From assembly GCF_050920415.1 (NCBI RefSeq), contig NZ_CP169309.1: a DNA stretch of 64,000 nucleotides; one strand, written 5' to 3'. Positions within the stretch are counted from its first letter, which is position 1; each line of letters opens with the position of its first letter. This stretch comes from Escherichia coli. GTDB taxonomy: Bacteria; Pseudomonadota; Gammaproteobacteria; Enterobacterales; Enterobacteriaceae. This document shows positions 55,709-64,000 of this stretch, in pieces. The notes under the pieces are model-generated. The model saw nothing but the letters and a program-made list of their open reading frames with translations, was not told the DNA's origin and ran no database searches. Both the position numbers and the translations under genes were made by a program.

Positions 55709-55763
55709 GCAGATAGCAAAAAAGCGCCTTTAGGGCGCTTTTTTACATTGGTGGGTCGTGCAG
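55709..55763 (-). repeat. Direct repeat copy 2: tRNA-Lys 3'-end fragment plus terminator hairpin
   Basis: 55-bp copy with one mismatch to copy 1, 156 bp downstream of it. Confidence 0.7.
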
Positions 55764-55927: not shown

Positions 55928-56227
55928 TCAGGAGATCATTAACCCGGATTCACCTTCCACGATCACACCACCATGTTCGGTGGTATCTCCCATACGGGCA
56001 ACGGCTTTACCGTTAATTTTGAGAACCGTTGAACCGGAAACAATAGTGTCTTTGCTACCGCTACCTTTGCAGGTGAGCTTATCACCCACCAACGCCAGCG
56101 GAACACCATTATACGTAACAAAGGTCTGCTGACATTCACTGACCGGGCCACCAATATGTGGGCGGGGGCCGGGATCAACTTTCGGGCAGGTATGGTTATG
56201 TCCTTTGAGTACCACGGCTTTACTCAT
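55928..56227 (-). CDS. PAAR-domain protein (putative T6SS spike-sharpening protein)
   Basis: ORF 55928..56317 trimmed to ATG 56227, which overlaps the upstream stop as ATGA; 99 aa, MSKAVVLKGHNHTCP...LKINGKAVARMGDTTEHGGVIVEGESGLMIS with a PAAR-like KAVAR motif. Confidence 0.7.
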   Translation of the reverse strand: MSKAVVLKGHNHTCPKVDPGPRPHIGGPVSECQQTFVTYNGVPLALVGDKLTCKGSGSKDTIVSGSTVLKINGKAVARMGDTTEHGGVIVEGESGLMIS

Positions 56228-56982
56228 CGTCTGTTCTCCTGCGCAGTTTTTGTGAATATGTCCAGAAGTCGCCAGTAAGCATACTCCTGTTGTCCCAGAT
56301 TCAGGCAACCATACCACCGTGGATGCAGAGGATCATCAAAACAACGAAATCCGTCATAATATTGGGCTACTGCCAGTAGCACTTCGGCCTGTCCGCCGGA
56401 TTCATAGCGGGATAGCGCCCGCCTTGCACTAGCCATCAGTTGTCGGTATATATTTTCATATAGCTCAACTGTTGGCGAAAAAGCCGTTCTTTTTTCCACC
56501 GTATACAGGCGGGTGAAAATCTGACCACTCCCCAGCCAGGCATTGTGATATTGGGGGATAATGCAGTGAGGCGTATCCGGCCCCCAGGAATGTTTATAGT
56601 GTTCACTAAGCCAGTCAACAGACCAGTCATCTTTATGTGCTATCAGGTATGCAGGTATAGTCTCATCTTGCGGGGATGTCTTTGCACTAATGTAGTGTTC
56701 AACAATTTTCTGCAATTCCGTATAGCGGACATCCTCCATAAAAAACGATCCCAGGCACAATCTGGCACTGGCAATATGTATAGCAAGCAATTGATCAGGA
56801 ACTTTTTGAGTCTCAGTCCATTGATAGCTCTGTCTGATTAATTCATCAATAGCGGATGCGGGAAGCTTTCTGTCGGTAATAACCTTACCAAAGCGGTTTA
56901 CCAGCCAGACGCGGCCCTTTTTCAGAAATTCCATCATCCGGTGCTCCGCCAGACTACGGTAAGTTGCTTCTGTTATCCTCAT
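56224..56982 (-). CDS. Hypothetical protein, paralog of the 309-aa upstream gene; candidate T6SS immunity protein
   Basis: 252 aa; shares FMEDVRYTELQKIVEHYISA and LLAIHIASA motifs with FVKEALYTQNEVLLKEWLTA and IVLAIEMLAS of the neighbour. Confidence 0.45.
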   Translation of the reverse strand: MRITEATYRSLAEHRMMEFLKKGRVWLVNRFGKVITDRKLPASAIDELIRQSYQWTETQKVPDQLLAIHIASARLCLGSFFMEDVRYTELQKIVEHYISAKTSPQDETIPAYLIAHKDDWSVDWLSEHYKHSWGPDTPHCIIPQYHNAWLGSGQIFTRLYTVEKRTAFSPTVELYENIYRQLMASARRALSRYESGGQAEVLLAVAQYYDGFRCFDDPLHPRWYGCLNLGQQEYAYWRLLDIFTKTAQENRR

Positions 56983-57014: not shown

Positions 57015-57944
57015 TTATTTAAAAAGCGTTTTTGTAAAAGCCAATTCCGGGTTAATGGCGATCAGTTTATCCAGCAATGGATAAAACCACTCCGGGGCAT
57101 TCCAGCGGCTGAAATCGGGGCGATGATCAATTGCCAGCGGTGTTTTTAACAGCGGATGATCGATTTCTGGGGTGGAAAGACCATGCTCTGCCCGAAAATT
57201 TTTTACTGCCTGATATTCAAACGGCCAGAGCAGCAATTCTCGGTCTTCAATTTCATAACCATTTCTGGCATATTCGTCTTCAGTTGTTTCGGTACGTGCC
57301 GACCATTTAAGATGGTTATCGCAAAGTGCTGTCAGCCACTCCTTCAGCAAGACTTCATTCTGTGTGTAGAGCGCTTCTTTTACAAACTGGGTATAAAAAC
57401 GATCAGAGGGGATACCAAATGTCTCCCAGTTGATAGTTTGTTTCTGTTCGCTGGCAAGCATTTCAATTGCCAGCACAATCATTTTTTGCGGTTTAAGCTT
57501 TTTAGCTTTTGCTACGTCAAAGTTTTTCAAACCTTGGGTGAAATAAGGATAATAAAGACGGGCGATATCAAGACGATGCGTTGCCATAAATGATAGGAGT
57601 GGAATTCCTTTCTTATAGAAAAAACCATCTAAGAAACCTGTGGTTTTAGAATATTGAATGGCTTCACAAAACAAATTCATGGATTTACATGCAACATAAT
57701 CACATATTAACGAGTTATCCTCTTTGTTTTTGTAAAATAAATACCACGCATATAGATAACAAAAGGATGAAGCTGCATCATAGAATATATATTGTGAATC
57801 AGATATTTCCTCGCCATTCGAATTGCCCACTTCTAATAAAGCATCAGAAATATCCTCATTGGAAATGTTTATATATCTGTTAACATCCATGTTAAAGGAA
57901 CTTTCATTAACAAAATAAGAATGAATTTCATTGTATCTTTTCAA
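57015..57944 (-). CDS. Hypothetical protein, paralog of the 252-aa downstream gene; candidate T6SS immunity protein
   Basis: 309 aa; AT-rich N-terminal third; C-terminal region homologous to the 252-aa ORF. Confidence 0.45.
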   Translation of the reverse strand: MKRYNEIHSYFVNESSFNMDVNRYINISNEDISDALLEVGNSNGEEISDSQYIFYDAASSFCYLYAWYLFYKNKEDNSLICDYVACKSMNLFCEAIQYSKTTGFLDGFFYKKGIPLLSFMATHRLDIARLYYPYFTQGLKNFDVAKAKKLKPQKMIVLAIEMLASEQKQTINWETFGIPSDRFYTQFVKEALYTQNEVLLKEWLTALCDNHLKWSARTETTEDEYARNGYEIEDRELLLWPFEYQAVKNFRAEHGLSTPEIDHPLLKTPLAIDHRPDFSRWNAPEWFYPLLDKLIAINPELAFTKTLFK

Positions 57945-57946
57945 TT

Positions 57947-58972
57947 TTAATTTCCTTCTTTTTGAGGAAGACTACTGTGAAAAGGAATATCCGTTTTAAA
58001 TTTATCTTTGACTATTTTTGCATCACCAAACCACAAGGAAATAGATGACATTCCCTCTGGGCAAGCTATGTTTTCAATTAATTTATATTCTTCGTTTATA
58101 CCTTGACCAATAACAAGTCCTATAACGCCCATTTCACCATTAGGTTTATTTTGATCTCGAAGTGCTTTTAGCAATTTTTTTACATTTCTTCGTTTTTCAT
58201 CATCCATCACATAACCACCTGGATTTTCTTTATTCATTTTTAACGCATTTTCAATTCTCTCTATAGCATAGTCAATGGCTCCCTCCTGTTTCTCTGATAA
58301 AATACCTTCATACTGCGTAAAATCACCTGCATCGTCACCATGACATGCCTTTGTTTTTACTTCACAGATCAGCCAAAAATCATCCGGCGGCGGTGAAGGG
58401 TTTTTTACTTTAGCAACAAGATCAAGGCCGTTTTTGGTTTTGACGTGCTGAACCGACATCACCGAACCTTCTACTACGCTGAAGTTAACGGTAGCCGTTG
58501 CCTGTTTAGCCTCCTTATTATAGATATGAAATTGTGCATTTCCCTGTTTCATCTTCCTGGCGAGAAGCACCTCGCCAACATCACCAGTAAACTGATTGAT
58601 TTTCAAAGAAAATAAGCTATCAAAAATCTTATTTTTAATCAAAAAATTAGCAACCTCAGTTGCGCTCATGCCAATTTCTGTATCGCCATTAACCTTTACG
58701 CGAAATGTTGCGTGTGTTGTACTGCCAGGCTCAAGCTCTGACTCAATACGTACAATTGCTTCCGTTGCATCTTTATTACCGGAACCTGACGCATGTGTTA
58801 TCCCTACAGTAATCCTGGTCGGGCCGGCTTGTTCTTCAAAAGTGGCAAAGGCCGTATTGGCTCTGAGGACTTCAGCCTCGGCTTCTTTTACTCTTTTCGC
58901 ATCATTAATCGCACGCCGGTTTACCTGCGTAACATTTACTGCATCTTCGATAGCCCCTGTACCTTTTCCCAT
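57947..58972 (-). CDS. Hypothetical protein with a possible PD-(D/E)xK nuclease motif; candidate T6SS toxin domain or immunity protein
   Basis: 341 aa; start overlaps the upstream stop as TAATG; literal PDDFWLICEVK matches the P-D...(D/E)-x-K pattern. Confidence 0.4.
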   Translation of the reverse strand: MGKGTGAIEDAVNVTQVNRRAINDAKRVKEAEAEVLRANTAFATFEEQAGPTRITVGITHASGSGNKDATEAIVRIESELEPGSTTHATFRVKVNGDTEIGMSATEVANFLIKNKIFDSLFSLKINQFTGDVGEVLLARKMKQGNAQFHIYNKEAKQATATVNFSVVEGSVMSVQHVKTKNGLDLVAKVKNPSPPPDDFWLICEVKTKACHGDDAGDFTQYEGILSEKQEGAIDYAIERIENALKMNKENPGGYVMDDEKRRNVKKLLKALRDQNKPNGEMGVIGLVIGQGINEEYKLIENIACPEGMSSISLWFGDAKIVKDKFKTDIPFHSSLPQKEGN

Positions 58973-60306
58973 TATTTTTCCACTCCCTGGTCTTCATTCT
59001 CAATCTTCATTGAGGAAACCTCTACTTCATTTACCAGTGCAACCTTACTGCCAAGGTAAGCGCCGCCACCACTGGTAACTAATGCTGAAGCAAATTTATA
59101 TTGTGGTTTTTTACCAAATACCATCAGGGTATTTATTGCATGAAAGGCCACTTCAATATTATGTCCCCCACCTGATTTTTTATCCAGATAGCGGGAAAAC
59201 TCAAGCAGTGGATTATATCCATCGGCTTTTGAACCAAGCCACCGATTACGCAGTTTATCCGCTACCTCAATACCATGATTGACATCCACAACAAGCATAG
59301 CAATACGAAGAACCTTCATTGAACCTTTTAAAAAAATAGTCCCGGAAACAATAGCAGCAATCGTCAGAAGTGCATCAGCGACCTCTAAAATAACATCCCT
59401 TACAACATCAAGAGACCGGTTCTCATCAGCCTGATTAAGAACGGCACGGATAAATTCTTCCGCCAGATCAGAGGGGGATTTATGTAATGGGCCGGCCAGT
59501 CTTTCAGGACGACTTCCTGCACTATTTGTCGCCAGCTCACCATATATCAGCGATACATCAAGTGTTTCATATGGACGGTATTTCAGTTGCTCATCGGTTA
59601 ACACATCCCGGTATTCAGCAGGAAGACCTATCGGAACTTCTGCATCTCTGTAGATATAAATATCCGGCGCAACCTCAACAACAAAATCATCTCCCCAGAA
59701 TGTACTGCCATGAGTTCTGGCATGTTCCACTTTATAATTATTACTGTAATAAGGGATAATATTTGCACCAACCTCATGGTATCTTAATTTAAATTTAGCA
59801 TCTTCCAGTTGAACGGTTTCTCCTTTATATTTAACAGCAAACCCGTTGCCGTCTGGGCTTTCCCTGGCCTGTTCGTCAAAAAGCAGTGCAAAATTGAGAA
59901 ATGCTTCATCCCCAAGTTGTTTTCTGACGGCATCAAAAAACGCATCCATTGCCACAATTTCTTTTGCTGTTTCAATAGCATTTCTTTCCGCATCCGTTAA
60001 ATCTGGCGAGTCCTGTATTGTTGCATAACGGGTGATTTCATTATTCAGACTACGGAGTGGAATACCTCGCTGTAAATGTACCTGTGAGGTCTTCTTATCC
60101 ACTGGCTCAAAGAAAGATCCCATGAAACTGGCTGTATTCTTATAAAAGTCTTCTATCGCCTGCTGTCCCTCAGCCGTTGAGCTGTCAAACTCCACAAAAG
60201 CGCCAAATGGTTTCAGCGGGCATGTTGCTGTTGCGCTTTTTGCATCACACGGTATTGCGTCAGAAGGAATGCTTCCCGTTGCCGCTCCGTCAGTATCATC
60301 CATCAC
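58972..60306 (-). CDS. Hypothetical protein; candidate T6SS cargo effector partnered with the DUF4123 adaptor
   Basis: 444 aa; sits directly downstream of the DUF4123 gene, the canonical effector position; hydrophobic segment ALLTIAAIVSGTIFL; no GxSxG lipase motif. Confidence 0.45.
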   Translation of the reverse strand: MMDDTDGAATGSIPSDAIPCDAKSATATCPLKPFGAFVEFDSSTAEGQQAIEDFYKNTASFMGSFFEPVDKKTSQVHLQRGIPLRSLNNEITRYATIQDSPDLTDAERNAIETAKEIVAMDAFFDAVRKQLGDEAFLNFALLFDEQARESPDGNGFAVKYKGETVQLEDAKFKLRYHEVGANIIPYYSNNYKVEHARTHGSTFWGDDFVVEVAPDIYIYRDAEVPIGLPAEYRDVLTDEQLKYRPYETLDVSLIYGELATNSAGSRPERLAGPLHKSPSDLAEEFIRAVLNQADENRSLDVVRDVILEVADALLTIAAIVSGTIFLKGSMKVLRIAMLVVDVNHGIEVADKLRNRWLGSKADGYNPLLEFSRYLDKKSGGGHNIEVAFHAINTLMVFGKKPQYKFASALVTSGGGAYLGSKVALVNEVEVSSMKIENEDQGVEK

Positions 60307-60322
60307 TTACACTCCTTTTTTG

Positions 60323-60898
60323 CTATATAAAGACCAGACTATTTTTTTCTTTTGGGTTTTCACAAATAATATTTGTCAGTCCGGTGGTAAATTCTGCAAA
60401 ATCGTCCGCAGGTAAAAAAGGAATAAAATCCCGCACTGTTTCAGGCGCATAATACCGGAACATGACCCACATTTTATTTACCTCATCATAAAGCTGATTA
60501 AATTTTCGCAGATGATGAGTCAGTTCATTCAGGGAAAGATAGCTGCGGATAAAAATACCCCAGCCATTACCCCGGCTGCTTCTTATCAGCCATTCCGTAA
60601 ATGGCTTATCTTTTTCCAGCCGGACGATATAAGGCGCATAAAGAGAAAACTGTTCTCCCAGTTCACCTTTCCATAAGCATGACCATTCCGTCTCATACGC
60701 ATCAAGTAAAACGGCAATATCCGGTTTTTTTAATGCATCAATGATGGCATAAGTGTGGCAGTCAGTTATTTTACTGGCAGATATCACTGATATATCATCA
60801 GATGCTGTTTTTTCCGGCATACTGAAAAGAAAGCCTGTCAGCGCATCCTGGTATAATTGTGTATCTTCCGGCACATCAATAATTTTCAGTCGGCTCAT
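60323..60898 (-). CDS. DUF4123-family T6SS effector adaptor/chaperone (Tap/Tec-like)
   Basis: 191 aa; YAIIDA, YAPYIV, HLRKF and RYYAPETVRDF motifs match my recollection of the DUF4123 signature; ATGA overlap with the vgrG stop. Confidence 0.75.
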   Translation of the reverse strand: MSRLKIIDVPEDTQLYQDALTGFLFSMPEKTASDDISVISASKITDCHTYAIIDALKKPDIAVLLDAYETEWSCLWKGELGEQFSLYAPYIVRLEKDKPFTEWLIRSSRGNGWGIFIRSYLSLNELTHHLRKFNQLYDEVNKMWVMFRYYAPETVRDFIPFLPADDFAEFTTGLTNIICENPKEKNSLVFI

Positions 60899-62967
60899 TT
60901 TTTCCCGTCCTCTTCTTCGGCCTGTTTTGCTTTCGCACAGATTTCGCAGAACGGTTTGCCCTCATTCACCATCGCCGTCAGTGCTTCCACCTGATCCACG
61001 CCGCCGCCCCGGATATCCATTGCTGGCGTCAGGATCTGAAGTTTTTTTGCCTTTATCGTAACGCCACCACCATCAATGGTCAGACTGCCGCCAGGCCCGG
61101 CGATCACCAGTCGCTCTCCGGCGTGCATAATGTATTTATTGGTCTGCGAAAAAATCTTCGTATTTACCGTTTCATCCTTCACGCCCTGGATCACCACCGT
61201 TTTATTGCCGCCAATATCGTCCAGGGAATCAGCAAATATTTTCTTTCTTTCCGAACTGTTCACCACCAGCGTCCGGTTTCTGTCCACTTCGATTTCCTGA
61301 TCCTGAACCACCCGGACAACGGAGTTCCTGCCGATGGTTTCATAGTGATCCCGGCCCACATCTGTTTTCTTGTCCTGACCAATGGTTTCCTGCTGGTCAA
61401 CGCCCACGCTTTTGGCGCGGTTATTACCGATGGTATGGCTTTCATCGTGCAGAATTTCCGTCACATGGTCTTTCTGCGCGTGCATATAGACCTGTTCCCG
61501 GTTTGTGGCGTCTTCAAAACGCAGTTCATTAAAACCCTCGCCCCGGTAGGTCTGCGTGCGGATAGTGGTCTGCGTTTTCGTTTCCGGTAAATCCCCCGGC
61601 GAGCGATTTTTCTCATGGTAGGTGCGCCCCATGATGATCGGCTGGTCAGGATCACCGTTTAAAAAATCGACAATCACCTCCTGACCCACACGCGGAATGG
61701 CAAGATGACCAAATCCCGTCCCGGCCCATGGCTGTGATACTCTGATCCAGCAGGAACTGTTCTCATCCTGTTTGTGATAACGATCCCACAAAAATTTCAC
61801 CCGCACCCGGCCATGCTCGTCGCAGAAGATTTCCTCACCTTCCGGCCCGGTGACGACCGCTGGTTGTGGGCCATCCACTTTCGGCTTAGGCTGCGGCGTG
61901 GGACGCCAGGTTTTATCCGCTGGTATGGCCTGAAACGTATTCACCAGCGTGGTTCCCTGGCCCCGGCTTCCGGGAACGGCCTGCGGCTGCTCGCCGTGCA
62001 GTTCGCTGGCGATCACCTGCCATTCCCGGTTCAGATCGTCAGCCGGATGATCGGTCAGCGTAAAGCGCGTACCGGGCCACAGTTTTGGCGAGTTGCTGCA
62101 TCCCCTGGCGATCTCCGCATCATTGCGCCAGCCTTCCATCTGGTAACGGGTAAAATCTCTGCCATGCTGTTCGTCCTTAAAACGCCCCGGATAGTCCATC
62201 ACCTCATACTGGTTGCGCTGGCCGTTAAGACTGGCGGCATTATGGCGAAAACGCCCCGGCCAGTCAGGGTATTTGAAGGTGTAGTCTTTGCTGATGACAT
62301 ACGCCGGGCGTATCTGCGCACTGTGGCGGAACTGGCTGATATACTCCGTTTCCGTGGCGCGGGGTTCCGGGTTAAACGGAAGGGGGAAGGCTTCCGGCAG
62401 GTAGTAAACTTTATCGCAGAACACCAGCGGCTGATCCTTCCCTTCACGGGCGTGCTCTTCGTAAAAAAATATCCCTTCTTCCGCCAGCAGGCGGCAGAGA
62501 AAACCAAAATCAGTTTCACCGTACTGCACGCAGAACTCCCGCGCCGGATGAGGCTCGCCCAGCAGATAAGCCGTCTGCATCACCCGGTTGTCATCCAGCA
62601 GGTGCTTAATAATGGACTGAATATCCTGCTGCTGAAAATGGCGAAAATTTTCCCGCAGGCTGCTGCGCCAGAAAGGAGGATGCACCCGCAGGTAGTAGTT
62701 CATTTTATGACCGTCATATTCCCCGCGCTCAATCCTGGCTACCAGCCCGGTGATATGGCGCTGTGCGGTATTGTTTTGCCACAGGGTAAGCGTGGCATTC
62801 AGTTCCAGCAGTTCCGTAGATTTAAGGTGGATAGTGTCGCTGATGAGATGAAGATCGAGGGTGAATAATGCGGAGTAATGCTGGGTAAGATGAAAGTTTA
62901 CGACGGCAAAGGTTTCTGTATCAAAATCGCCGATATCAACGGTAAAACGGGTTCCTGTCCGGGGCAT
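60895..62967 (-). CDS. vgrG: Type VI secretion system spike protein VgrG
   Basis: 690 aa; gp27/gp5-like body, e.g. CDEHGRVRVKFLWDRYHKQDENSSCWIRVSQPWAG and repetitive beta-helix region; short C-terminal tail EGKPFCEICAKAKQAEEEDGKK. Confidence 0.9.
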   Translation of the reverse strand: MPRTGTRFTVDIGDFDTETFAVVNFHLTQHYSALFTLDLHLISDTIHLKSTELLELNATLTLWQNNTAQRHITGLVARIERGEYDGHKMNYYLRVHPPFWRSSLRENFRHFQQQDIQSIIKHLLDDNRVMQTAYLLGEPHPAREFCVQYGETDFGFLCRLLAEEGIFFYEEHAREGKDQPLVFCDKVYYLPEAFPLPFNPEPRATETEYISQFRHSAQIRPAYVISKDYTFKYPDWPGRFRHNAASLNGQRNQYEVMDYPGRFKDEQHGRDFTRYQMEGWRNDAEIARGCSNSPKLWPGTRFTLTDHPADDLNREWQVIASELHGEQPQAVPGSRGQGTTLVNTFQAIPADKTWRPTPQPKPKVDGPQPAVVTGPEGEEIFCDEHGRVRVKFLWDRYHKQDENSSCWIRVSQPWAGTGFGHLAIPRVGQEVIVDFLNGDPDQPIIMGRTYHEKNRSPGDLPETKTQTTIRTQTYRGEGFNELRFEDATNREQVYMHAQKDHVTEILHDESHTIGNNRAKSVGVDQQETIGQDKKTDVGRDHYETIGRNSVVRVVQDQEIEVDRNRTLVVNSSERKKIFADSLDDIGGNKTVVIQGVKDETVNTKIFSQTNKYIMHAGERLVIAGPGGSLTIDGGGVTIKAKKLQILTPAMDIRGGGVDQVEALTAMVNEGKPFCEICAKAKQAEEEDGKK

Positions 62968-63406
62968 AACGTTTCCTTAGCAATAATACGGCTCAGAGAT
63001 AACGAAATCATTCATGAGCAATATGAATTATGATTAATAATTCGTAAAAGGAATGTATTTTATAATGACTCTTCCTGTTTTTAGTCAAAGTTGTCATTAT
63101 AATTAATATTATACTAATTAATTTCCAGAAAACTTCTGTAACCAGTAAAAACACTGCTCCGACAACCTAACATAATGTAAATTAACACTATTAACTGGAA
63201 ATTATCATCTTTAAGTTTACATAAATTCCGTGATGCATATCGCAAAGCGGTGATAAATATATATCCTGTGAAAATGAACTTTGCACCTCCACAGAATATG
63301 TTAACGTAATATCATATGGTAGCAGAAGGCTATTAATTAATTATCCGTATTATAAATCTTGTCTGACGCCTTTCTGTTTCTGCTGTATTACGGGAAGGAT
63401 TACCTA
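62968..63406. promoter_or_regulatory. AT-rich divergent control region between vgrG and tssF
   Basis: 439 bp, visibly AT-rich (runs such as ttataattaatattatactaattaattt); no ORF; flanked by divergent starts. Confidence 0.5.
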
Positions 63407-64000
63407 TGGCAATGAACGAACGTTTTTACCGGGAAGAACTGGATTATCTTCGTCAGTATGGCGCGCTGCTGGCGCAGGAATATCCCGCCCTGAAATCTTT
63501 CCTGGGCAGTAAAAACGCTGATCCGAACGTGGAACGCCTGCTGGAAGGGTTCGCGTTTCTCTCCGGCAGACTGCGGGAAAAAATCGAGGATGAGTTTCCC
63601 GAAATCACCGTTCCGCTGATTAACCGTCAGTGGCCCAATTATTTGCGCCCCGTTCCGCCGATGACCGTTATCGAATACACGCCGGACAGCTGCAGGCTTA
63701 CCGCTCCCCTGACCGTTTCACGCGGTGAGCAGGTGATGAATCCGGGGCAGGACAGCCAGCCGGAAAACAGCCGCCCCGGTGATGAATCAGGGGCTACCGG
63801 GGGGCCACCTTCCTGTATCTTCACTTTGTGCCGTGATATCCGCCTCCTGCCGTTGTGCATTGAAACAATACAGAGTCGCAGCAGCCCGCAATCCAGTACC
63901 CTTGATCTCATTTTCACCGTGACGGGAAAAGGCCGGATCGCCACCGCCGATCTGAATCAGATCAGTTTCTGGCTGGGCGATGCGGACGAACGCAGCCGCA
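63407..64000 (+). CDS. tssF: Type VI secretion baseplate protein TssF (ImpG/VasA family), N-terminal 198 aa; continues beyond the window
   Basis: Open frame from ATG 63407 to the window end with no stop (absent from the ORF track for that reason); MAMNERFYREELDYLRQYGALLAQEYPALKSFLGSKNADPNVERLLEGFAFLSGRL... matches the TssF N-terminal signature. Confidence 0.75.

Follow-up and report, generated by a model that had tools for sequence, protein, structure and literature searches.

Results

Gene content and boundaries of the island cassette

The window, by which we mean the whole 64,000-nucleotide stretch of DNA analysed here, comes from the chromosome of Escherichia coli MFDS1022581 and carries a minus-strand operon of seven genes in the order vgrG-DUF4123-p444-p341-p309-p252-PAAR (Table 1). 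Neighbouring genes are joined through ATGA or TAATG overlaps or are separated by gaps of 2-32 nt. Profile HMMs recognize a type VI secretion system (T6SS) VgrG and a DUF4123 adaptor upstream of the PAAR gene and in the same orientation, which is the composition of a vgrG-linked cargo module. The PAAR gene is the last one of both the operon and the island, and 165 bp separate its stop codon from the att repeat, which is 16 bp long. It also comes last in every related locus we inspected that shows the whole cassette, except the one of Serratia microhaemolytica. Gene order and RefSeq annotation agree with the preliminary description of this DNA, which had the PAAR gene closing the operon, neither beside vgrG nor fused to an effector.

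Table 1 Features of the cassette operon and its surroundings in the window.
Feature	Position	Strand	Remarks
Intrinsic-terminator-like hairpin	55718..55744	-	GCGCC-loop-GGCGC, then T run; host sequence just past the att repeat; read from sequence
att repeat	55748..55763	.	TTGGTGGGTCGTGCAG; exact copy of the intact tRNA-Lys 3' end, which lies at the other island end; island boundary
PAAR gene	55928..56227	-	99 aa plus stop; RefSeq WP_000030802.1, 'PAAR domain-containing protein'
ATGA overlap	56224..56227	-	PAAR ATG over p252 TGA; tcat on the + strand; read from sequence
p252	56224..56982	-	252 aa, uncharacterised; directly upstream of PAAR; candidate accessory protein
Shine-Dalgarno AGGAG	56236..56240	-	Within the p252 coding region, 8 nt before the PAAR ATG; read from sequence
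p309	57015..57944	-	Probable immunity protein for p341; extra copies, hypervariable N-terminal half
p341	57947..58972	-	Probable toxin; motif E134...D184...E204-x-K206
p444	58972..60303	-	Cargo protein downstream of the adaptor; hydrophobic segment aa 301-330; stop overlaps p341 start (TAATG)
DUF4123 adaptor (Tap/Tec family)	60323..60898	-	Pfam PF13503, E 1.2e-20; start overlaps vgrG stop (ATGA)
VgrG spike	60895..62967	-	690 aa; TIGR03361, E 3.9e-180; short tail after the beta-helix
Divergent vgrG/tssF intergenic region	62968..63405	.	438 bp; presumed promoter region
tssF, 5' part	63406..64000	+	Island-borne; RefSeq; runs past the window, then tssG

The cassette lies on an integrative island of ~16 kb at tRNA-Lys; of 5,426 complete E. 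coli genomes, one has this island. Ordinary E. coli genomes are homologous up to 55766, directly beside the repeat of the tRNA 3' end, and two integrase-domain genes sit next to the intact tRNA-Lys, as is characteristic of tRNA-linked integrative islands. Within the window, ARAGORN found no tRNA, only the 16-bp remnant being present there. In addition to vgrG and the DUF4123 gene, the island holds tssF, tssG, the integrases and an HTH gene; our literature searches for islands that carry tssF-tssG together with vgrG turned up no relevant report. The operon transcript likely ends at the hairpin past the att repeat; a consensus terminator scan did not list this hairpin. A promoter scan returned sites no more numerous than expected by chance.

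The same chromosome encodes a complete T6SS at 4.11-4.15 Mb (tssB, C, E, F, G, J, K, L (icmH/dotU), H, A and M, hcp and vgrG). The island TssF is 49% identical to the TssF of this main cluster, with a dN/dS of 0.19 at near-saturated dS. Besides the cassette, the host has three other vgrG genes and two canonical PAAR genes of 94 aa in the main cluster, both named 'type VI secretion system PAAR protein' by RefSeq. The cassette PAAR is 35% identical to these over 52 aa.

The terminal gene encodes a PAAR spike-tip protein

By both family and fold, the 99-codon gene encodes a genuine PAAR spike-tip protein. Pfam PF05488 (PAAR_motif) aligns with it over profile positions 2-69 of 70 at an E value of 7.1e-20 and with 71.5 bits, where the cut-off is 27 bits; judged by sequence, the match is far beyond chance. 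The NCBIfam model for the 'type VI secretion system PAAR protein' (NF033420) scores below threshold, at 36.1 bits against a cut-off of 124. The best matches among PDB sequences are 8gra_J (E 1.4e-13, residues 3-99) and 9rce_c (E 1.6e-13), followed by the weaker matches VCA0105 (4jiv, E 1e-5) and c1882 (4JIW, 5e-3), and the protein belongs to a PAAR subfamily whose closer kin are the tip proteins of eCIS and of the Bacteroides T6SS, the canonical enterobacterial PAAR being more distant.

The AF2 model is confident (pLDDT 94.1, pTM 0.85) and compact, and all of its secondary structure is beta. Its top Foldseek matches are 4jiv_D, 4jiw_D and 4ku0_D. The six best PDB matches are all PAAR proteins: 4jiv, 4jiw, a phage KP1 baseplate chain, T4 gp5.4, a phage P1 baseplate chain and phiKZ gp163.1. 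Five matches at E < 0.001 give query-normalised TM-scores of 0.69-0.78. The product had been called PAAR-like in the preliminary description, and both the family alignment and the predicted fold, with solved PAAR structures as its best matches, uphold that assignment.

H24 and C53 are the same in all 33 aligned homologues, and H12, C14 and H85 in nearly all. Shneider et al. (2013) reportedly found that PAAR proteins bind zinc via His/Cys residues. At the position of H85 the cassette protein reads EHGG, whereas canonical PAARs have a Cys (DCGG), so the presumed metal ligands would be arranged differently from those of canonical PAARs. The gene is under strong purifying selection (dN/dS 0.04-0.07, near-saturated dS), and its product is the best conserved protein of the cassette.

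Translation start and overlap with p252

The PAAR gene lies in a minus-strand open reading frame (55928..56317) that would give 129 aa from a GTG start and that has an internal ATG at 56227, from which 99 aa are encoded. As first described, this ATG overlaps the preceding stop codon, and the longer frame overlaps the upstream gene; both observations hold, and the additional N-terminal residues are not conserved in homologues. The start Met is shared by 33 of 33 aligned homologues, nearly all of them 95-100 aa long, with no conserved N-terminal extension among the 33, and 34 of 38 homologues fall within 88-104 aa. The upstream gene stops 0-19 nt ahead of the PAAR start in related cassettes, including those of other genera, so the 129-aa frame cannot be conserved. 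That frame is open from 56317, but it would run over p252 by 94 nt in another frame, a strong Shine-Dalgarno sequence precedes the ATG at 56227, and the PAAR domain begins already at residue 3 of the short form. We therefore reject the 129-aa isoform, whose being a real product is exceedingly improbable, and take the real start, as predicted by these comparisons, to be the ATG at 56227; RefSeq likewise annotates the 99-aa form.

With its own Shine-Dalgarno sequence and its start overlapping the p252 stop, PAAR is probably translated from this ATG in step with p252. Among the loci examined, the ATGA overlap at this junction occurs only in two E. coli alleles, the others having gaps of 0-19 nt, and coupling by overlap is thus not a conserved feature.

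Candidate toxin and immunity genes

The four families between the adaptor and PAAR (p444, p341, p309 and p252) returned nothing significant from Pfam, NCBIfam or PADLOC, and profile searches against PDB sequences also found nothing. Word-indexed searches with p341 and p444 yielded only 6-7 relatives apiece, all unannotated. For p341, searching exhaustively with a profile recovered 24 relatives among 1.8 billion representative proteins, and none of these is fused to a known toxin scaffold. Paralogy among the four families was considered and rejected: hhalign detected no relationship, and p309 and p252 are not paralogues. Accessory systems based on Tvp, DUF2169 or DUF4150 proteins (PMC13373197) were set aside, as such domains are absent.

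Judged only from its motif and from comparative patterns, p341 is probably a toxin, and the motif could hypothetically be likened to that of PD-(D/E)xK nucleases. The p309 gene is present in three copies in Pectobacterium, together with a truncated p341 remnant, and extra tandem or orphan copies occur in Budvicia too. Between the two E. coli alleles, p309 and p341 have a hypervariable patch in common, located in the N-terminal half of p309. p309 has no hydrophobic segment and so is probably cytoplasmic. It is the probable immunity protein for p341, and p444, p341 and p309 form a candidate uncharacterised effector/immunity family.

p252 accompanies the PAAR gene

The 252-aa start of p252 is backed by homologues and by a Shine-Dalgarno sequence (GGGAGAGG). 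Wherever a DUF4123-type locus extends this far into the cassette, the gene is single-copy and lies beside PAAR, either 0-19 nt from the PAAR start or overlapping it. The pair stays together even where gene order has changed: in S. microhaemolytica (L028) the order is vgrG-DUF4123-p252-PAAR-p444-like, with the pair ahead of the effector-like gene. Between the two E. coli alleles p252 is 96% identical, against 78% for p341 and 72% for p309. PAAR had been described as following putative immunity genes, and this stands for p309, which has the hallmarks of immunity in its copies and hypervariability, but not for the single-copy, conserved and PAAR-linked p252, which is a candidate accessory rather than immunity protein.

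One possibility, which we hold tentatively, is that p252 and PAAR are a functional pair in which p252 would serve as a chaperone or co-adaptor with PAAR and the DUF4123 protein and load the p444/p341 cargo; p252 acting with PAAR would explain the coupling of the two genes. The single-copy, PAAR-linked and conserved nature of p252 would fit, and accessory proteins that aid PAAR/VgrG assembly are known (co-TecT and Tvp proteins). Against it, p252 has no homology to any known accessory family and is absent from type-B cassettes that have the same PAAR, and a degraded island (L015) keeps p309-like and p252-like genes together with PAAR, which an immunity role would also fit.

A conserved frame with exchangeable cargo

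Synteny of the seven genes is kept in Budvicia, Klebsiella, Pectobacterium, Serratia and metagenomes. VgrG is a mosaic: residues 1-480 go with the island frame and residues 481-690 with the cargo module, and sliding-window identities to Salmonella and Budvicia sequences have reciprocal profiles. DNA homology to the loci of Salmonella salamae comprises only the 1.46 kb of the vgrG 5' region, stopping at 61508, and the PAAR gene plus 110 bp downstream, beginning at the PAAR ATG. In S. salamae and other Enterobacteriaceae, the same vgrG 5' region and PAAR flank unrelated cargo, so that one frame carries two cargo types. A scan for related loci with the closer PAAR sequences gave 8 loci. PAAR proteins 84-88% identical to that of the cassette (88% for Salmonella) stand behind VgrGs with unrelated C-terminal thirds.

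The presence of unrelated cargo between the same vgrG 5' region and PAAR implies that cargo has been exchanged inside a conserved frame. VgrG residues 1-480 and PAAR are, by these alignments, that frame, while the VgrG C-terminus, adaptor, effector, immunity gene and p252 are the exchangeable cargo module. The suggestion that the whole spike, adaptor, cargo and tip set is inherited as one cassette is therefore right insofar as synteny extends across genera, but it does not hold for the mosaic VgrG or for the unrelated cargo of S. salamae and other Enterobacteriaceae.

Discussion

Comparison with known systems

The layout of the cassette is already documented in Agrobacterium tumefaciens C58, where tap-1 encodes a DUF4123 protein. 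The C58 hcp operon contains vgrG1 (atu4348), tap-1 (atu4349), tde1 (atu4350), tdi1 (atu4351) and atu4352, the last of which is listed against VCA0105, a PAAR-repeat protein of Vibrio cholerae whose structure has been solved (PMC3702570, PMC4096383). The likeness lies in the gene order of VgrG, adaptor, effector, immunity and a stand-alone PAAR in last place, and a VgrG1-PAAR-Tde1-Tap1 complex has been shown in A. tumefaciens. The cargo differs, being Tde1/Tdi1 there and p444/p341/p309/p252 here, and the A. tumefaciens operon is within the main T6SS cluster whereas the E. coli cassette is on a tRNA-linked island.

The best solved sequence match, Pte2 of Bacteroides fragilis (8GRA chain J), shares H-x-C-P, PHIGGP and HGG motifs with the cassette PAAR and belongs to a different type of T6SS. 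Pte2 is a T6SS spike tip (PMC13402684). Its chain has 222 aa with a C-terminal extension and comes from a different phylum, whereas the E. coli protein is a bare 99-aa domain. SalCis10 (9RCE), from the extracellular contractile injection system (eCIS) of Salmonella enterica subsp. salamae, is also 99 aa long and has the same His/Cys pattern. It caps a trimeric gp27/gp5-like spike (PMC13266070) and differs from the cassette PAAR in its origin, the latter belonging to a T6SS vgrG operon. VCA0105 of V. cholerae (4JIV) and c1882 of E. coli (4JIW) are likewise small stand-alone T6SS PAAR proteins and have the same fold (TM 0.69-0.75, first and second in the Foldseek ranking), but their sequence similarity to the cassette PAAR is weak.

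Swappable effector modules with cargo-specific VgrG C-termini, as seen here, also characterize A. tumefaciens VgrG1/VgrG2 and the Pseudomonas aeruginosa VgrG paralogues with DUF4123 Tap proteins. The N-terminal part of VgrG is conserved and the C-terminal region co-varies with adaptor and effector (PMC11582642; Bondage 2016, as cited). What sets the present locus apart from known vgrG modules is that the exchanged segment is bordered on its 3' side by a conserved PAAR and that the frame includes tssF-tssG on an integrative island; in the literature searched we came across no account of such a combination.

Role of the cassette PAAR

We consider it quite probable that this small stand-alone PAAR caps the VgrG spike of its own operon, within an island cassette whose cargo is exchangeable. 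PAAR proteins cap VgrG (Shneider 2013, as cited in PMC11582642), and a helix-turn-helix at the VgrG C-terminus is bound by the N-lobe of DUF4123 proteins (PMC11582642). In the cassette, a single copy of PAAR folds into a cone-shaped beta structure, probably stabilised by a metal ion on its conserved His/Cys residues, and would sit on the blunt end of the trimeric VgrG, the product of the first gene of the operon. Through the DUF4123 adaptor, p444 and the probable toxin p341 would be attached to the C-terminal tail of VgrG, and p309 would shield the producing cell. Once loaded and capped, the spike would be launched by the complete T6SS encoded elsewhere in the host genome, possibly with help from the island TssF/TssG.

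The specificity of this tip is less certain, and a PAAR that is generic or redundant is a possible but less likely reading: it would cap any VgrG in the cell, host PAARs would cap the cassette VgrG, and its place at the operon end would reflect recombination history. The two canonical PAAR genes of the host mean that the cassette PAAR may be dispensable or not VgrG-specific. The host also has three further vgrG genes. An 88% identical PAAR accompanies Salmonella VgrGs with an unrelated C-terminal third, so its fit to the tip of the cassette VgrG need not be specific, and in Serratia one VgrG is reported to pair functionally with PAAR domains that are only 34% identical. On the other side, PAAR is more conserved than any other cassette protein, is kept at the cassette end in all complete loci inspected but one, and evolves under strong purifying selection; its low identity to the host PAARs suggests a distinct partner preference.

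That PAAR is instead a functionless relic, left in what remains of a T6SS cluster now in decay, is very improbable. Just two core T6SS genes are on the island, tssF, tssG or vgrG are frameshifted in some Salmonella or other copies (L003, L013), and remnants occur in which PAAR alone is left (L015, L029); in E. coli MFDS1022581, however, tssF, tssG and all seven cassette genes are intact, dN/dS values run from 0.04 to 0.19 with dS close to saturation, and the two E. coli alleles have diversified in a toxin/immunity-like manner, which implies that selection is ongoing. We reject an inert relic on these grounds and because the host has a complete T6SS. Fainter still is the chance that the protein tips an eCIS or phage-tail-like particle rather than a T6SS spike. 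SalCis10 is its second-best PDB sequence match, and a homologue with 48% identity is encoded in L030, an eCIS locus that also has a tape-measure gene of CIS type, Pvc16 and an eCIS_core toxin. The cassette PAAR, by contrast, is co-oriented in one operon with a T6SS-type VgrG (TIGR03361, E 4e-180) and a DUF4123 gene, near the island tssF/tssG, its best PDB match is a T6SS PAAR, and the island has no eCIS or phage tail genes; as the operon is of T6SS type and the island does not qualify as an eCIS locus, we also reject this reading.

More speculatively, and with considerable doubt, the two patterns around PAAR may be read jointly. p252 and PAAR would be a conserved two-gene unit, with p252 as a hitherto unrecognised accessory or co-adaptor protein needed for assembly of the PAAR-capped, DUF4123-loaded spike; and PAAR, the 480 N-terminal residues of VgrG and TssF/TssG would make up a portable 'hub-and-wedge' frame at tRNA-Lys that plugs into a resident T6SS, with the cargo, including the C-terminal third of VgrG, swapped by recombination for which the PAAR gene would serve as the 3' homology arm.

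As the layout is already documented in A. tumefaciens C58, the PAAR finding is real but ordinary, and the gene itself, which RefSeq names as PAAR and whose order is known from Agrobacterium, is of little import. For T6SS specialists some value lies in a rare mobile island that equips an E. coli strain with a spike, a tip and two baseplate genes in addition to its resident T6SS, in a locus that is a clear case of cargo exchange bounded by the vgrG 5' region and PAAR, in the p444/p341/p309 family and in the candidate PAAR-linked accessory protein p252, all of them testable leads rather than surprises.

The PAAR gene closes a seven-gene operon

As the preliminary description had it, PAAR closes the operon. 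The seven genes lie on the minus strand: vgrG and a DUF4123 adaptor gene are followed by four genes whose products are named here by their length in amino acids (p444, p341, p309 and p252), and then by the PAAR gene. From vgrG to PAAR, successive genes meet at ATGA, across 19 nt, at TAATG, across 2 nt, across 32 nt and again at ATGA. For p252, RefSeq places the start at 56937 (237 aa); the start at 56982 (252 aa) is favoured by homologues at six further loci and by a GGGAGAGG Shine-Dalgarno sequence.

Positions of the operon genes and associated features in the window
Feature	Position	Strand	Remark
tssF start	63406	+	divergent from vgrG
vgrG	60895-62967	-	minus-strand operon
DUF4123 adaptor	60323-60898	-	minus-strand operon
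p444	58972-60303	-	minus-strand operon
Divergent patch	59400-60000		mid-p444
p341	57947-58972	-	minus-strand operon
Divergent patch	57500-58700		p341 C-terminal two thirds and p309 N-terminal half
p309	57015-57944	-	minus-strand operon
p252	56224-56982	-	minus-strand operon
129-aa ORF	55928-56317	-	from GTG, in the ORF listing
AGGAG	56240-56236	-	8 nt 5' of PAAR ATG
PAAR	55928-56227	-	last gene of operon
End of homology to ordinary E. coli	55766
tRNA 3'-end repeat	55748-55763		16 bp
Hairpin, then T run	55744-55718	-	host sequence, just past repeat

The sequence features first described for this gene (a 99-aa ORF, an ATGA overlap, and an in-frame 129-aa extension that runs into the upstream gene) are all present. 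Within the longer frame, an in-frame ATG at 56227 begins the 99-aa product MSKAVVLKGHNHTCPKVDPG...; the plus-strand tcat at 56224-56227 reads as ATGA on the minus strand, with the PAAR ATG overlapping the TGA of p252. The GTG-started form would run 94 nt into the upstream gene. All 33 aligned PAAR homologues share the start Met, nearly all are 95-100 aa long, and no conserved N-terminal extension was found among them. In other genera the upstream gene ends 0-19 nt before the PAAR start, and RefSeq annotates the 99-aa form. Together, these observations argue against the 129-aa form, which we regard as disfavoured.

The Agrobacterium tumefaciens C58 hcp operon comprises vgrG1 (atu4348), tap-1 (atu4349), tde1 (atu4350), tdi1 (atu4351) and atu4352. 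For atu4352 the listed counterpart is VCA0105 of V. cholerae, whose solved structure is that of a PAAR-repeat protein (PMC3702570, PMC4096383). A layout in which a stand-alone PAAR gene lies distal to the immunity gene is therefore a known one.

The protein and its PAAR subfamily

The protein aligns to the Pfam PAAR_motif model with an E-value of 7.1e-20 (71.5 bits, cut-off 27), and RefSeq already names the gene as encoding a PAAR-domain protein. A PAAR fold is also predicted: the AlphaFold2 model, built with 33 homologues as input, has a pLDDT of 94.1, and each of its six top Foldseek matches in the PDB is a PAAR protein (query-normalised TM-scores 0.69-0.78 for the five with E under 0.001). 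Lack of such a prediction was a refuting outcome named in the preliminary description, and it did not occur. Among homologues, H24 and C53 never vary and H12, C14 and H85 hardly do, making these five residues candidate metal ligands.

The closest PDB sequences are 8gra_J (E 1.4e-13), the B. fragilis type VI secretion system (T6SS) PAAR (PMC13402684), and 9rce_c (E 1.6e-13), which is SalCis10, a PAAR-like protein that forms the tip of an extracellular contractile injection system (eCIS) in S. salamae (PMC13266070). The classical VCA0105 (4jiv, 1e-5) and c1882 (4jiw, 5e-3) are more remote. The NCBIfam model for the canonical T6SS PAAR protein is not reached (36 bits against a cut-off of 124), identity to the two canonical 94-aa PAARs of the host's main T6SS cluster is 35% over 52 aa only, and a relative at 48% identity sits in an eCIS locus. 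On this evidence the protein is a genuine PAAR whose subfamily stands closer to Bacteroides T6SS and eCIS tips than to the usual enterobacterial type.

The operon lies on a tRNA-Lys island

The window is 100% identical to the chromosome of E. coli MFDS1022581. The cassette is present in one of 5,426 complete E. coli genomes, and an identical PAAR protein occurs in many draft assemblies, at the same location every time. Beyond the window, tssF is followed by tssG, genes for a 153-aa protein and an HTH_35 protein, two integrase-domain genes and an intact tRNA-Lys. With the tRNA 3'-end repeat and the end of homology to ordinary E. coli at the opposite side, this arrangement identifies the region as a ~16-kb tRNA-Lys integrative island. 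PAAR is its terminal gene, 165 bp from the boundary, and the hairpin and T run read from the sequence probably end the operon transcript.

At 4.11-4.15 Mb the host has a complete T6SS, which includes hcp, three vgrG genes, two PAAR genes, and Tae4 and Tle1-type cargo. Its proteins are 49% (TssF), 55% (TssG) and 52-61% (VgrG) identical to those of the island. The island tssF and tssG are intact (63406-64000 (+), continuing at 27907-30782 of L001, the host island region) and stand without other T6SS core genes; their dN/dS against the Salmonella copies is about 0.17-0.19. It seems unusual for an auxiliary module to bring baseplate wedge genes of its own. The cargo region of the main T6SS (L018, NZ_CP169399.1, 4.105-4.131 Mb) is broken up by mobile elements: one vgrG is split by an IS21 element, an IS2 separates a cargo pair from a PAAR gene, and close by are ISAs1 remnants and a group II intron. 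The stretch that the window spans also has an IS2 with the same protein accession, inserted between yfeH and yfeR.

A conserved frame surrounds exchanged cargo

The seven-gene order ending in PAAR recurs in Budvicia aquatica (within a full T6SS cluster), Klebsiella spallanzanii (after hcp), Pectobacterium parmentieri, Serratia silvae, an Enterobacteriaceae MAG and a metagenomic island flanked by integrases. PAAR is the best-conserved cassette protein in all seven-gene loci compared; identities to Budvicia are 77% for PAAR, 48% for VgrG, 53% for the adaptor, 31% for p444, 25% for p341, and 38% each for p309 and p252.

In Salmonella enterica subsp. salamae, a gut Enterobacteriaceae isolate and another xapR-site locus, unrelated cargo sits within the same frame, made up of PAAR at 83-88% identity, a vgrG with matching 5' part and, where present, tssG-tssF. 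Such type-B cassettes, which lack p252 (L002-L006, L023, L013), encode a 117-141-aa protein with a hydrophobic N-terminus, then a 400-430-aa protein of no recognised family, with several alleles 30-45% identical to each other; PAAR follows after an 86-203-bp gap. vgrG is frameshifted in L003 and L013, as are tssF and tssG in L003.

The window and the Salmonella loci share DNA homology in two stretches only: the opening 1.46 kb of vgrG, and the PAAR gene exactly from its ATG to 110 bp past its stop. VgrG is a mosaic with a breakpoint near codon 480. Residues 1-480 are mostly 70-90% identical to the Salmonella island VgrG and 22-52% to that of Budvicia, while residues 481-690 match the Budvicia-type cargo module (70-80%; ≤50%, mostly under 35%, to Salmonella). 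That the VgrG C-terminus co-varies with cargo is already known (PMC11582642). The dN/dS of PAAR is 0.04-0.07 against the Salmonella and xapR-site copies, and that of VgrG, TssF and TssG is 0.15-0.19 against Salmonella, with dS near-saturated; all four are maintained genes and not relics.

Degraded islands were also seen: in Enterobacteriaceae bacterium B14 (L015 10396-14046) only p309-like, p252-like and PAAR genes are left, followed by HetE-N and PIN-TPR-GreABC genes, and in Saezia sanguinis (L029) PAAR alone is kept, between two integrase genes. A 171-aa chimeric ORF of Salmonella enterica (P0020) fuses residues 1-71 of a PAAR of this subfamily with the last ~100 residues of a p341-like protein, and may be a recombination or deletion product of adjacent cassettes, or an assembly artefact.

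Candidate toxin, immunity and accessory proteins

Profile searches of Pfam, NCBIfam, PADLOC and the PDB returned no family or solved-structure match for p444, p341, p309 or p252. A second E. coli island allele (L020/L021, in which the xap genes beside the island are also absent) is 98-100% identical in DNA apart from the two divergent patches, where identity falls to 46%. At the protein level the alleles share 78% (p341), 72% (p309), 96% (p252) and 98% (PAAR) identity. This patchy divergence of p341/p309 and p444 is typical of what toxin/immunity diversification would produce. In Pectobacterium parmentieri (L022 9001-16262) the order is p341-p309-[truncated p341]-p309-p309-p252-PAAR, and Budvicia (L007 12812-14911) has extra orphan p309 copies downstream of PAAR, both resembling orphan immunity arrays. 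The conserved E...D...E-x-K motif of p341 hints at a PD-(D/E)xK nuclease; the structure model of p341 is of poor quality. The hypervariable patch, the additional p309 copies and the p341 motif suggest that p341 is a toxin to which p309 gives immunity. The p341 family is very rare (24 relatives in 1.8 billion representative proteins), and p444 has a single hydrophobic segment (aa 301-330); both are uncharacterised T6SS cargo families.

p252 is single-copy and always immediately before PAAR. On a 4.4-kb contig of Serratia microhaemolytica (L028) the order is vgrG-DUF4123-p252-PAAR-p444-like, the contig ending before the rest of the cassette: PAAR is not last, yet still directly follows p252, so the pair persists when gene order changes. 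The earlier placement of PAAR behind putative immunity genes thus holds only by half: PAAR comes after one probable immunity gene, p309, and one conserved gene, p252, that may encode an accessory factor.

Proposed working of the cassette

The island's PAAR-fold protein is under purifying selection, and its gene is the final one of a compact operon that begins with those for a T6SS VgrG and a DUF4123 adaptor; the host's own T6SS is complete. According to PMC11582642, VgrG trimers are capped by PAAR proteins (Shneider 2013, as cited there), and a helix-turn-helix at the C-terminus of VgrG is where DUF4123 adaptors attach cargo. One PAAR would then cap a trimer of the island VgrG and the adaptor would load p444/p341; the host T6SS would fire the spike, perhaps with the island TssF/TssG, and p309 would protect kin. 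Translation of PAAR would be coupled to that of p252.

Our literature search found no description of an exchanged segment whose 3' edge is a conserved PAAR gene, of p252-PAAR pairing, or of an integrative island with tssF-tssG, spike and tip. The joint reading, in which p252 is a PAAR-linked accessory and the frame a mobile hub-and-wedge unit with PAAR as its recombination anchor, is one we offer tentatively and consider rather unlikely. The PAAR gene itself is real and was correctly identified, and since its layout is already known, that finding is ordinary; the 3'-edge PAAR, the p252-PAAR pairing and the tssF-tssG island are leads.
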